Shown piece after piece: positions 6,658 to 8,940 of a DNA stretch of 33,980 nt. Origin of the DNA: a virus (lineage: Duplodnaviria > Heunggongvirae > Uroviricota > Caudoviricetes). Every line of letters begins with the position of its first letter. Within the stretch, counting starts at the first letter, position 1. The translations under genes and the position numbers were made by a program. The notes under the pieces are model-generated. The model ran no database searches, was not told the DNA's origin, and saw nothing but the letters and a program-made list of their open reading frames with translations. The stretch is taken from IMG/VR virus record IMGVR_UViG_2869970738_000009. The stretch is one strand, 5' to 3'.

Positions 6658-7338
6658 TCACTGATTGCCTCCTTTGCGAAGCTGGGCAGCAAAGTCAACT
6701 AACCACTCAGTCATTTCAACCTTCCCTACCAGGTCTGAACTAGGGTGCATACAGCAATCACTCTGCGCCGCTTTGAAATCCTTACACTCATATTCTTGGG
6801 CCACCAGATTTTTTGCAGCTTCTATAGCAGCATCCACCCCCTGCGCCCGGACTTCAGCCAGGAAAGCATCAGTGGTTGGCGTTTCAGGTATCTGTCTCCT
6901 CATCCGTTCTATTGCATGATTGAACCCGAAGTCTTCCGCGAGAGATACGTCATCCATATTGTCATTGTCATCCTCAATATCCCGTGATTCTGGAATTGCA
7001 GACTTTATTCCCGCATTCTCCGCTGCCAGCGCCGCGCACTTGGCTTCAAGAGCGGCAACCACTTCCTGATGGTCTTTGTACTTAACGTATGAGCCGGAGA
7101 TGTCATCACCTTCGGTGTTTAGCCATGCGTCATTGCAATTCACTGCGTAGGTTCTGATGCTGATGCTCTCCCGCCCCTGACAGACGCCAGGCCAGTCAAT
7201 AAAGTATCCGCAATGCCTACCCTCAGACGTGCGCGCAGGATAAATGCCGTTATGACCCGGCAAAATATATGCTACCCATTCATCTTGCGTTGCCTGTTCC
7301 GCCGCCTCGCGCAGTGCCTGATAGTCAATCTTGCTCAC
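6658..7338 (-). CDS. Ead/Ea22-like phage protein
   Basis: N-terminus MSKIDYQALREAAEQATQDEW is typical of the Ead/Ea22-like family of lambdoid early-left regions (from memory). Confidence 0.55.
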   Translation of the reverse strand: MSKIDYQALREAAEQATQDEWVAYILPGHNGIYPARTSEGRHCGYFIDWPGVCQGRESISIRTYAVNCNDAWLNTEGDDISGSYVKYKDHQEVVAALEAKCAALAAENAGIKSAIPESRDIEDDNDNMDDVSLAEDFGFNHAIERMRRQIPETPTTDAFLAEVRAQGVDAAIEAAKNLVAQEYECKDFKAAQSDCCMHPSSDLVGKVEMTEWLVDFAAQLRKGGNQ

Positions 7339-7591
7339 TGGCAGCCTCCTTTGCCGGGATTTCTAACTTTTGAGTGGTTGTATCAAATTCAAACAACTTA
7401 ACCACGTCATCAAACAGGACATAATCACCATCAGGATCTTCAGTCATATCTGCGCCACAATCCTGACCGCACGAGTCGCAACCATCCATATCAAGCTCGT
7501 ATCGCTTCAGGTTTGCGATATTTGATAAATTCAGCGCCAGTACAGCCAGGTCATAAACCTCTTCGGCAGTGACATCGCTGTTCAGTCCCAT
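7325..7591 (-). CDS. hypothetical phage protein
   Basis: ORF; most likely start at ATG 7589-7591, immediately after the upstream stop (TGAAATG). Confidence 0.4.
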   Translation of the reverse strand: MGLNSDVTAEEVYDLAVLALNLSNIANLKRYELDMDGCDSCGQDCGADMTEDPDGDYVLFDDVVKLFEFDTTTQKLEIPAKEAASEQD

Positions 7592-7592
7592 T

Positions 7593-7910
7593 TCATGGCG
7601 ATATATGATTTTTTCTACTCGTTGTTTTGTGATCGTCATTTTTCTCTTCACTCCGATATACAAGGATTACTACACCCCCTCTGCTGATTGCGCGAGCTGG
7701 ATCCCCTGGTTCCATGCCGTCAATTCCGAAGGCTTCGGAAAACGCATTCATTGCCTTCTGGCGTTCATCCTGCTTACGGCGTTTATTCCATTTTTTCAGG
7801 AACAACAGCGACAGCCACCGTCCGCTGCAGAACACGATGTAAAAATAACCAAGGAGCGCCAGGCCGACATTCAGGGCCGTTTCTATGGTTAGTTGTGAGT
7901 CAGTTGCCAT
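7593..7910 (-). CDS. small membrane protein (one N-terminal transmembrane helix)
   Basis: Hydrophobic stretch LNVGLALLGYFYIVFCSGRWLSLLFL followed by a basic segment. Confidence 0.45.
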   Translation of the reverse strand: MATDSQLTIETALNVGLALLGYFYIVFCSGRWLSLLFLKKWNKRRKQDERQKAMNAFSEAFGIDGMEPGDPARAISRGGVVILVYRSEEKNDDHKTTSRKNHISP

Positions 7911-8148
7911 TTCTTACCTGTTTAAGTAACTGGTTGAACATAACACTTAGGGGATTGCTGTATCCAAACGGCAGATTGTTTACGCAGTACAGAATCATTT
8001 TGTTTTTTTCTCCAGTTCGTACTATTAACCCATTCCACAATAACCGTGATAATTTATTACTGATAGAAGTTGCGCTTCTTCCAAGTGCGAGGGATATATC
8101 TTCTCTACTGCAATCTGGATTTTCCTGGATATACTCGATAACGGTCAT
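7900..8148 (-). CDS. small winged-helix DNA-binding protein
   Basis: MTVIEYIQENPDCSREDISLALGRSATSISNKLSRLLWNGLIVR resembles a MarR-like wHTH; weak SD-like AAGGGA upstream of ATG at 8146-8148. Confidence 0.45.
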   Translation of the reverse strand: MTVIEYIQENPDCSREDISLALGRSATSISNKLSRLLWNGLIVRTGEKNKMILYCVNNLPFGYSNPLSVMFNQLLKQVRNGN

Positions 8149-8158
8149 GTGGTCCCTT

Positions 8159-8740
8159 TTACTTAATATCTGTTTCGGATTGCATGCCATGAGTATTCAT
8201 TTCGTTAATAATTTCATCCAGAAGGATTTCAAGCCCTTCTCGACCCATATCTGAAAGAATGAAACCTTTATCAGGGGAAGTAGTGAGCATTTTCTGATAA
8301 AGAAACAGCGCTCTTCCCATTCCTTCAGCTTCGCCGTATTTTTGAATTAAATTCCATTCAATATACTGTTGTAAGGCAAATCGAATGGGGCCGGGATATA
8401 TCGTCATAAACCCATACATCCCGTTATATACCACGGCGTGTTCAGTTGTTCCGTGTTCATTCAGGATATCAATTGTGCCGTTCTTGTCTTCTTCTTCGTT
8501 GATGAATGTCGTCACATACAACCATCGCCACTGAGCAACCTTCATCTCAACCGGAAGTTTACCCAGTAATCCTGCTTCGTCGGCTTGCGCCAGACACTGA
8601 AGGATACGTAAACCTCGCACATAAGGAGTATCGAATTCTCCGGCATCCAGACGACGTATGGCGTCGTGATAATCAATCGTCATACTGCCAGTTCGTATAC
8701 CATTGGCTGTTGCTTCAGCCTGGAATTCATCGTATTGCAT
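8159..8740 (-). CDS. hypothetical protein, 193 aa, no recognised motif
   Basis: Long ORF in operon context with tight spacing to neighbours. Confidence 0.5.
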   Translation of the reverse strand: MQYDEFQAEATANGIRTGSMTIDYHDAIRRLDAGEFDTPYVRGLRILQCLAQADEAGLLGKLPVEMKVAQWRWLYVTTFINEEEDKNGTIDILNEHGTTEHAVVYNGMYGFMTIYPGPIRFALQQYIEWNLIQKYGEAEGMGRALFLYQKMLTTSPDKGFILSDMGREGLEILLDEIINEMNTHGMQSETDIK

Positions 8741-8745
8741 GATAT

Positions 8746-8940
8746 TTATTCCTCATCTTCATCTTCATCTTCATCTGCTGGTGCAATAACGTCATATCCT
8801 GCCTTTTCTGCAATAAACAGGAATGTTGAAAGAGTTCCTACAAGTTCATCGTCATGAACATGGCGAATGAATATTACTTTCCCGTTTTTGATGGTCAGCA
8901 ATATTCTGGTTTGTTCGTGTTCTGCTGTTTTCTGATGCAT
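8746..8940 (-). CDS. hypothetical 64-aa protein with acidic DEDEDEDEE tail
   Basis: ORF with GGGAGA Shine-Dalgarno; C-terminal tail encoded by a (TCATCT)x4 hexamer repeat at 8753-8776. Confidence 0.45.
   Translation of the reverse strand: MHQKTAEHEQTRILLTIKNGKVIFIRHVHDDELVGTLSTFLFIAEKAGYDVIAPADEDEDEDEE

Follow-up and report, generated by a model that had tools for sequence, protein, structure and literature searches.

The exo-xis genes of lambdoid phages are early and non-essential, and modulate the lysis-lysogeny decision (PMC8614690). The locus considered here, part of a prophage contained in a stretch of DNA of 33,980 nucleotides (the 34-kb window), resembles that region in several respects: it belongs to a pL operon, lies beside a gene of the Ead/Ea22 family and upstream of the position of xis and int, and consists of small, tightly packed genes with a mosaic distribution, including one for a winged-helix protein, a type also described in exo-xis regions (phi24B gp05, for example). 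The conserved orf60a-orf63-orf61-orf73 block, however, is absent here: Pfam, NCBIfam, and PDB-sequence searches revealed no homology to orf60a, orf63, orf61, or orf73, none of the five proteins of the locus (A through E) resembles in sequence the Orf63 or Ea8.5 entries of the PDB, and only D has a homolog in a reference exo-xis region (orf78 of VT2-Sakai). Since there is no exo gene, the label “exo-xis” applies only by position.

Two further comparisons are informative. In phiP27, a Stx2e phage (NC_003356), the order of genes that follow the immunity region is the same as here; L06 is a homolog of gene B (66% identity), L07 stands at the position of gene A, and both are annotated as “unknown.” At the place that corresponds to C, D, and E, phiP27 carries instead the lipoprotein gene L05 and other ORFs. 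The second comparison is with a class of lambdoid phages that have no Rec module and are rich in Chi sites, described in 2025 (PMC12315714, where Bobay et al. 2013 is cited for such Rec-less, Chi-rich phages). This class characterizes the phage rather than the five genes, and the yfbR/yfdQ/yfdP-type genes that PMC12315714 names in LLS belong to families that differ from those found at this locus.

Organization of the early-left block

The block occupies positions 7325-8940 of the window and consists of five ORFs, A through E, all oriented on the minus strand and located between an Ea22-like gene and an IS2 element. The Ead/Ea22-like gene (6658..7338, minus strand), which is the downstream neighbor and marks an exo-xis-type region, starts with GTG, encodes 226 amino acids, and matches PF13935 with 101 bits. 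Spacing is tight throughout, with gaps of 5 nt between A and B and 10 nt between B and C, followed by overlaps of 11 nt (C/D), 47 nt (D/E), and 14 nt (E and the Ea22-like gene), and a Shine-Dalgarno-like sequence lies ahead of every one of the five genes. Each of the encoded proteins matches a PHROG profile (E = 2e-22 to 4e-90), and pairwise dN/dS values calculated against diverged copies fall mostly between 0.15 and 0.47, with a value of 0.74 for one close pair of A. These sequence comparisons indicate that A-E are genuine genes under purifying selection, and not chance ORFs; plus-strand ORFs that overlap the block did not match any PHROG. In addition, no paralogs of the five proteins were found elsewhere in the window, and neither an Rfam family nor a notable repeat was found within the block.

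The original prediction of a tightly packed, five-gene minus-strand block is thus borne out by the ORFs, the PHROG matches, and the dN/dS values, while two of its details require revision. The last gene, given as encoding 89 residues, encodes a protein of 104 amino acids, as seen in the PHROG alignment and, in agreement with it, in the way relatives are annotated in RefSeq and GenBank; furthermore, the description of the genes as unrecognized was an overstatement, given that D belongs to Pfam DUF4752, C passes the threshold of HTH_24, and all five are found in PHROG families. A search of PDB chain sequences returned nothing significant for any of the five proteins, Pfam, NCBIfam, and PADLOC did not assign A, B, or E to any functional family, and no papers were found on DUF4752, the RefSeq protein accessions, or the PHROG numbers. 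A sixth member, orf37, which did not appear in the earlier list of genes, adjoins A.

The orf37-A-B cassette and genes C, D, and E

Within the window, orf37 is represented by a 3' remnant (8943..9023, minus strand), the IS2 insertion having removed its first 11 codons and its ribosome-binding site (junction 9023/9024). The intact gene encodes 37 amino acids (V/MTFIKNMASHKTACLIAQYGENYMHIACLFLRKAYGR); its full ORF can be read in the CE10 prophage, and PhiR49_2 and Stx1 phages carry it as an annotated gene. The remnant is present, with 77-100% identity, in 84 of the 84 related loci that were compared, always beside A and B, so that orf37-A-B is linked in all of them, and the cassette is found in 283 of 5426 complete E. 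coli genomes. Such strict conservation within the lineage could point to a core, rather than an accessory, function.

Gene A (8746..8940, minus strand) encodes a protein of 64 amino acids (pI 4.6) composed of a small core and a poly-Asp/Glu tail that ends in ADEDEDEDEE; among 67 copies, the length of this tail varies from ADEDEE to ADEDEDEDEDEDEDEDEE. Values of dN/dS for A range from 0.26 to 0.74. The protein matches phrog_340 (E=1.4e-22) and resembles the C-terminal part of the “anti-repressor” PHROGs 4792 (E=5e-6) and 2379 (E=5e-4), and no relative was found among PDB sequences. The idea that A could be a detached C-terminal domain of the anti-repressor-like neighbors of distant B homologs was rejected for the proteins tested: a profile of the A family matched none of ten neighboring proteins of related loci (seven of which are Ant-, BRO-, ORF6N-, or AntA-like), nor did it match the Roi and Rha proteins of the window.

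Gene B (8159..8740, minus strand), which in the Escherichia lineage always has A upstream, even where identity drops to 46-49%, encodes an acidic (pI 4.6), cytoplasmic, alpha/beta protein of 193 amino acids that belongs to an orphan family. Structure prediction generated a confident model for which no structural match was identified in the PDB or in BFVD, and B is the sole mildly novel item of the block. Scanned against Pfam, 45 distant B homologs yielded 0 families, and back-translated scans for distant relatives found nothing, B having no stretch conserved enough for some of these scans.

Gene C (7900..8148, minus strand) encodes a minimal winged helix-turn-helix protein, basic and 82 amino acids long; an upstream ATG at 8190 would extend it to 96 residues, and relatives are annotated with the shorter form. 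Its likeness to MarR-type and other small winged-helix regulators lies in matches to HTH_24, a generic Pfam profile (22.8 bits, with a cut-off of 21.9), to MarR-type profiles, and to phrog_1687, “MarR family” (E=2e-24), and in Stx1 phages it is annotated as a “MarR family transcriptional regulator.” Members of the MarR family score above the profile threshold and have approximately 140-150 amino acids, with dimerization helices that flank the winged helix. C does not qualify by either measure: it remains below the Pfam cut-offs for MarR_2 (23.2 versus 27) and MarR (16.5 versus 24.6), and because it has only 82 residues there is no room for dimerization helices. Its dN/dS is 0.18-0.27, and its ORF is intact, but unannotated, in CE10 and PhiR49_2.

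Gene D (7593..7910, minus strand) encodes a single-pass membrane protein of 105 amino acids that belongs to the DUF4752 family, matching PF15944 with 125.8 bits (cut-off 27) over positions 2-84 of the 84-position profile, as well as phrog_667. The hydrophobic segment, residues 12-37, is followed by KKWNKRRKQDERQK; the N-terminal flank is acidic and the C-terminal flank strongly basic, a charge distribution that predicts an N-terminus-out, C-terminus-in topology. The homolog in VT2-Sakai, orf78, is located between a gene for a DksA-like zinc-finger protein and an ea22-like gene, and a second homolog is found in the early-right nin region of BTP1.

Gene E (7325..7639, minus strand) encodes a very acidic protein (pI 4.1) that matches phrog_3126 (E=5e-64), in an alignment that begins at the ATG at 7639; its 244 homologs are all unnamed. 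The AlphaFold2 model of E (pLDDT 52) was unusable and was left out of the fold search. Only two cysteines are conserved, C54 (in at least 90% of sequences) and C61 (invariant), which rules out a CxxC zinc site. Identity with the P22-type “EaE” was also rejected, the EaE annotation in phage Pu29 belonging to a neighboring gene. Members of the family are found in Salmonella siphophages of the Skatevirus type, which show no integrase in the regions compared, and the family also makes up the N-terminal portion of longer proteins, among them a 205-residue protein of Sf101, a phage that has a recombination module.

The distribution of these genes among relatives reveals their mosaic nature. Annotated prophages of about 100 complete E. 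coli genomes, as well as phage PhiR49_2, share approximately 99% identity with the region as a whole; of the 5426 complete genomes of E. coli, 1452 have matches to parts of the region, and only 101 to 80% or more of it. In the intact relatives (CE10, PhiR49_2, and Stx1 and Stx2 phages), colinearity places the block between cI and xis/int, in the orientation of pL. Across the 84 loci, C, D, and E vary in presence independently of one another, and one recombination junction lies inside C, showing that the block is made up of three or more independently assorting pieces. Of the accessory module that had been proposed, the early-left position and the tight packing hold, as does the description as accessory for C, D, and E at least, while co-occurrence in the 84 loci speaks against a single module.

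Missing recombination genes, Chi sites, and IS disruption

The absence of exo, bet, and gam, as claimed in the original prediction, is confirmed both by the ORFs of the window and by the intact relatives. The early-left operon contains no exo, bet, erf, recT, gam, or abc2, and the ORFs examined between cI and the int remnant are all accounted for, none of them by a Rec family; the intact relatives display the same gene order, also without exo/bet/gam. The window carries 17 Chi sites (GCTGGTGG), 11 on the plus and 6 on the minus strand, compared with 1.27 expected, and none of 100 shuffles (0/100) reached this number. At least eight Chi sites on one strand characterize the Rec-less, Chi-rich class, to which the prophage belongs with its 11 sites on the plus strand. 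Counts in B-carrying relatives that have no annotated Rec module are 12 plus and 5 minus for phiP27, 14 plus and 1 minus for KPP5665-2, and approximately 11 plus and 3 minus for PhiR49_2. The missing exo/bet/gam genes are the signature of this known class, and not of a replacement by cargo.

IS2 (9024..10354, plus strand) generated a 5-bp target duplication; its end can be read directly in the sequence, it is annotated in E. coli genomes, and its insertion is evident from colinearity with the intact CE10 prophage. Together with IS1 (10479-11246), it separates the block from pL and from the immunity region that includes cI (12147-12878). The prophage in the window also has a truncated integrase and has lost xis. 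Because the two IS elements cut the block from pL, its genes are probably silent relics in this genome. When positions 6600-9100 were scanned, neither a promoter-like site on the minus strand nor a convincing terminator was seen; the scan employed a crude sigma-70 consensus, which weak or non-canonical promoters, or read-out from IS2, could have escaped.

Competing explanations for the function of the block

Gene structure, family membership, mosaicism, membership in the Rec-less class, and IS disruption are established, and the explanation that accommodates them best, which we consider reasonably likely, is that the block is a mosaic early-left (pL) stretch of a lambda-like prophage, encoding accessory proteins of the early lytic phase that are silent here. 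The prophage, integrated next to mlrA, would share its lineage with phiP27, PhiR49_2, and the mlrA/yecE Stx phages, and its early-left stretch would have two parts: the lineage-conserved cassette of orf37, A, and B, always following immunity-proximal regulators, and a variable cargo formed by C, D (an inner membrane protein), and E, each with its own distribution in other phages. Since starts and stops abut or overlap and no promoter-like sites of their own were seen, the genes would be expressed solely within the pL transcript, during the first minutes after induction or infection. Judging from their position and from the analogy with the exo-xis and nin genes of lambda, A-E would be non-essential early proteins aimed at the lysis-lysogeny decision, host physiology, or counter-defense, through contacts with proteins (A, B, and E), DNA (C), or the membrane (D). 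Protection of the lysogen would not be among their roles; the presence of D in the BTP1 nin region and of E in Skatevirus-type siphophages would argue for early functions that benefit the phage. Phages of the Rec-less class rely on host RecBCD and on abundant Chi sites.

Single-pass membrane proteins of prophages are sometimes superinfection-exclusion factors, a consideration that counts against this explanation and evokes the possibility, put forward in the original prediction, that the block, or part of it (C and D, or D alone), could be a prophage-borne defense or exclusion module that protects the lysogen. Exclusion genes are indeed known in early-left regions (lambda sieB and rexAB-type loci), D is predicted to be a small inner-membrane protein, and the GC content of the block (39-46%) is lower than that of the window (~50%). 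C also matches phrog_142, the “Ren-like exclusion protein” family, but its likeness to lambda Ren is limited to this weak match (E=4e-5). A comparison with PADLOC-DB v2, however, gave 0 matches for A, B, D, E, and the Ea22-like protein, and for C returned only the generic winged-helix portion of CARF, CasR, Csa3, and SoFic models. Expression in the lysogen, which a prophage defense gene needs, is not suggested by anything in the block, because the crude scan detected no promoter-like site within it, and its layout is that of translationally coupled genes in the pL operon. Together with the distribution of D and E in the phages named above, the independent assortment of the pieces, and the separation from pL by IS2 and IS1, these results leave the defense candidacy without support, and we regard it as unlikely.

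Two other proposals concern the cassette. It is rather improbable that orf37-A-B performs a DNA-transaction function of the Rec-less, Chi-rich lifestyle, taking the place of the lambda Rec module, where it might modulate RecBCD, RecA, or replication restart. Pointing in this direction are the fact that nothing but the cassette is invariant in the early-left operon of the lineage, the strong Chi enrichment of the three complete B-carrying phage genomes counted (phiP27, PhiR49_2, and KPP5665-2), the absence of an annotated Rec module from every inspected context of a B homolog, and the acidic nature that B shares with lambda Gam. On the other hand, B has no detectable similarity to a nuclease, an annealing protein, an SSB, or the Gam/Abc2 fold, its homologs also sit in primase-bearing satellite-like elements, and no unknown gene is universally present in Rec-less phages according to PMC12315714. 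The sample, moreover, covers only about three independent phage groups, so that the association could reflect shared ancestry. In its broader form, B together with orf37 and A would be a conserved early function specific to Rec-less, Chi/RecBCD-dependent temperate phages and satellites, which might involve RecBCD/RecA modulation or DNA-end protection; this version, too, we hold to be doubtful. Much less probable still is a toxin-antitoxin or abortive-infection role for A and B as a pair, in which a small, acidic, upstream antitoxin would be coupled to a larger, downstream toxin. The size, acidity, and position of A, the 5-nt gap, and the strict linkage in Escherichia would fit such a pair, as would the ParE_like Pfam match of a 74-residue protein that precedes one distant B homolog; B is itself acidic, however, the genes that precede distant B homologs bear no relation to A, one B homolog has no upstream partner at all, and the pair is embedded in an early lytic operon, where the crude scan revealed no separate promoter. 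Neither A nor B matches a toxin or antitoxin family, and their partnership is not maintained across the family, in disagreement with what defines type II systems.

With the block read as a mosaic early-left stretch, its genes are ordinary, already-catalogued “hypothetical” early-left accessory genes of a decayed lambda-like prophage. A candidate is thereby struck from the list of defense systems, the missing exo/bet/gam genes are tied to a known phage class, and orf37-A-B emerges as the invariant early-left part in prophages of a lineage to which Stx1, Stx2, and Stx2e phages belong. If the association of B with Rec-less phages were functional, it would bear on the manner in which such phages use host RecBCD, and orf37-A-B would be a missing component of the Rec-less lifestyle, rather than cargo.

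Gene content of the early-left block

Between the IS2 insertion and the Ead/Ea22-like gene (6658-7338, minus strand, GTG start), five minus-strand genes lie in a row over 7325-8940, as had been described: A (8940-8746; 64 aa, pI 4.6, C-terminal end APADEDEDEDEE), B (8740-8159; 193 aa, pI 4.6), C (8148-7900; 82 aa, pI 9.1), D (7910-7593; 105 aa, pI 9.4) and E (7639-7325; 104 aa, pI 4.1). Their near-abutting or overlapping starts and stops are also confirmed, with spacings of +5 (A/B), +10 (B/C), -11 (C/D) and -47 nt (D/E), followed by a 14-nt overlap of E with the Ead/Ea22-like gene, and a Shine-Dalgarno-like sequence is present at every start of A-E. 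The length of 89 aa initially assigned to E is corrected to 104 aa, since the match to the PHROG profile starts from the ATG at 7639 and the gene is annotated with 315 nt in RefSeq and GenBank relatives. An alternative upstream in-frame ATG for C at 8190 would lengthen the protein to 96 aa and make the gene overlap B by 32 nt; the short form is the one used in Stx1-phage annotations. Judged from sequence, all five are genuine: every one has a PHROG profile match (A 340, B 1515, C 1687, D 667, E 3126; E-values 1.4e-22 to 4e-90), dN/dS in pairwise comparison with diverged copies lies mostly at 0.15-0.47 (0.74 in one close A pair), and antisense ORFs across the block region have no matches.

The original prediction was essentially right as an observation, but its description of the genes as unrecognised does not hold: D is Pfam DUF4752 (125.8 bits), C scores above the HTH_24 threshold and is named 'MarR family transcriptional regulator' in Stx1-phage records, and A-E belong to catalogued hypothetical families, with annotated relatives, in a familiar type of region. 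In the Stx2e phage phiP27, the homologs of A and B are L07 and L06, both annotated 'unknown'. C is intact (99% identical) yet unannotated in the E. coli CE10 prophage (RefSeq; 9711-9960) and in the deposited phage PhiR49_2 (4526-4775). Region 7200-9050 matches prophages in the best-matching genomes at ≥99% identity almost from end to end; ≥80% of it is present in 101 complete E. coli genomes, and portions in 1452 of 5426. The A+B pair occurs in 283 complete E. coli genomes, in all of which its location is chromosomal.

Protein A consists of a small core and an acidic tail (8746-8775), encoded by an in-frame (GAT GAA)n repeat that varies in length from one to seven Glu-Asp units and, over 67 copies from related loci, gives tails from ADEDEE to ADEDEDEDEDEDEDEDEE. 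This variability, together with the lack of a tail in the diverged phiP27-type copy, makes an essential role for the tail unlikely. The core is similar to the C-terminal portion of two 'anti-repressor' PHROGs (E-values 5e-6 and 5e-4); no similarity links it to the anti-repressor-like proteins encoded next to distant B homologs. C is a minimal winged-helix protein without the length of a true MarR. D has one predicted transmembrane segment, and positive-inside topology would place about 65 residues in the cytoplasm. In E only two cysteines are conserved, and its structural model (pLDDT 52) is unusable.

A conserved cassette, travelling genes and the orphan fold of B

The view of the block as one module is contradicted by a tblastn comparison of 84 related loci (80 from IMG/VR and four reference loci). 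A, B and orf37, a sixth member of the set (37 aa) whose 3' remnant lies at 8943-9023 (minus strand), are present and adjacent in 84/84, and their linkage is kept in the most diverged copies (B 65%, A 46-49%, orf37 77%), whereas C is missing from 25 loci, D from 33 and E from 46. The block is therefore a conserved three-gene cassette joined to three independently travelling accessory genes. Elsewhere A-B precedes quite different cargo (SPFH, ORF6N and DUF5406 genes), and in several loci similarity ends within the 3' end of C, a break typical of lambdoid mosaicism. D occurs alone as orf78 in the exo-xis region of VT2-Sakai, between DksA-like zinc-finger and ea22-like genes, and in the early-right nin region of the P22-like phage BTP1. 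In Sf101, a phage with both a recombination protein and an anti-RecBCD protein, E corresponds to the N-terminal portion of a 205-aa protein; in Skatevirus-type Salmonella siphophages (e.g. Pu29) and other Salmonella siphophages of ~45 kb, presumably virulent, it lies beside replication genes. At two ead/ea22-type genes the ribosome-binding site and initial codons lie within a 43-nt direct repeat (81% identical; 6635-6677 and 7312-7354), whose left copy begins a truncated second Ead/Ea22 gene with its remainder at 4873-5376; the repeat is probably a conserved junction that favours mosaic exchange.

The B family comprises 101 clusters at 50% identity, typically of 190-220 aa, and no Pfam domain was found in the 45 members scanned. 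The confident AlphaFold2 model of B (pLDDT 86.6, pTM 0.83) is mixed alpha/beta and has no structural match (best Foldseek E-values 0.11 in PDB and 0.06 in BFVD). Near-invariant residues are G34, D37, R72, W73, F79, Y105, R120, E128, Y148 and G166; the C-terminal His that ends most members is missing in the window copy. Homologs in several Klebsiella phage records (among them KPP5665-2, 25821-26399) are named '2-polyprenylphenol hydrolase' or 'flavodoxin oxidoreductase', names that lack Pfam or NCBIfam support and thus look like propagated mis-annotation. Distant homologs occur either in short early-left operons flanked by an S24 repressor and int, where a BRO-N, ORF6N or Ant-like gene often follows directly, or in primase-bearing satellite-like elements. 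At some distant loci, a ~74-aa protein with a Pfam ParE_like (PF24732) match, unrelated to A, precedes the B homolog (L085, 708-932; L095, 5370-5591).

An IS-fragmented prophage without a Rec module

Colinearity with the intact E. coli CE10 prophage identifies the window as an IS-fragmented lambdoid prophage at mlrA (yehV), with five IS copies within 11 kb of early-left region: IS1 (1141-1908; int truncated, xis lost), an IS3-family element (~3430-4568) that splits a phrog_631/9263 gene (3196-3429 and 4569-4871), a second IS3-family element (~5389-6626), IS2 (9024-10354), inserted in orf37 with a 5-bp target duplication and loss of its 5' end, and a second IS1 (10479-11246), which replaced ~193 bp including a 68-aa gene. 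The last two cut the block off from the immunity region (HTH gene, 11541-12044; cI, 12147-12878) by ~2.1 kb of IS DNA. The IS2 junction has no match in complete E. coli genomes or species-representative genomes, and the IS load hints at a Shigella-like host. Despite these insertions the A-E ORFs are intact, and their proteins are 99-100% identical to those of PhiR49_2, except for A (95% over 62 aa, owing to its variable tail). A consensus scan of 6600-9100 gave no promoter-like site on the minus strand and no convincing terminator; in intact relatives transcription of the genes would start at the early-left promoter pL, and in this decayed prophage they are probably silent.

Further along the window, Rfam isrK (14012-14088, 62 bits) lies beside a C4 antisense RNA (14110-14197, 75 bits) at the 5' end of a Rha-family ORF (13955-14803), a layout reminiscent of the way in which P1/P7 immI-type (c4-ant) loci control anti-repressors. 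After three tRNA genes (22949-23195) come the sRNA STnc100 (23274-23463) and a segment of low GC content (34%, 23501-24000); the tRNAs in the corresponding position of phiP27 precede stxA and stxB, whereas the window has no stx genes.

The reported absence of exo, bet and gam from the region is upheld, and intact relatives share the same Rec-less gene order. Chi octamers (GCTGGTGG) number 17 in the window (11 plus, 6 minus) against 1.27 expected, a count reached in none of 100 shuffles. They span 123-28279 (plus strand: 13195, 16183, 18304, 18954, 19306, 19577, 21411, 21728, 22548, 27634 and 28272), with none in the early-left region 1141-12900, and both the enrichment and a plus-strand bias recur in phiP27 (12+/5-), PhiR49_2 (about 11+/3-) and KPP5665-2 (14+/1-). 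It has been reported that 22% of lambdoid phages lack a Rec module and are Chi-enriched, and proposed that they rely on host RecBCD (Zheng et al. 2025, PMC12315714). The window fits this class exactly, lacking a Rec module and being enriched in Chi, and the absence of exo/bet/gam is a property of the class rather than displacement by cargo. An annotated canonical Rec module was likewise absent from the distant B-homolog contexts inspected, the label 'recombination-related exonuclease' on a 104-aa ORF of KPP5665-2 being regarded as dubious; as only about three independent phage groups are sampled, this association of B is kept as a lead.

Early accessory functions or defence

The best-supported reading, by analogy, is that A-E would be accessory genes of the pL operon that act early in the lytic phase, counterparts in position and style of the lambda and Stx-phage exo-xis and nin genes, which are the first to be transcribed, are non-essential and alter the balance between lysis and lysogeny (PMC8614690). 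No support was obtained for the rival idea that the block is one candidate defence module: PADLOC, run as the defence-catalogue check, returned generic winged-helix similarity for C and nothing else among the block proteins, and the pieces assort independently. Phage-serving early functions are favoured over lysogen-protecting defence by the translational coupling of the genes, the lack of a promoter-like site of their own, the presence of D in an early-right operon and of E in siphophages whose compared regions carry no integrase, and the marked acidity of A, B and E. A toxin-antitoxin pairing of A with B is unlikely. As early accessory genes, their mode of action could be regulatory, or one of host takeover or counter-defence.

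A link between orf37-A-B and a Chi/RecBCD-dependent lifestyle is improbable. Follow-up is worthwhile only for the orphan-fold protein B and the conserved cassette, whose strict conservation suggests a role more central to the phage lineage than that of cargo.
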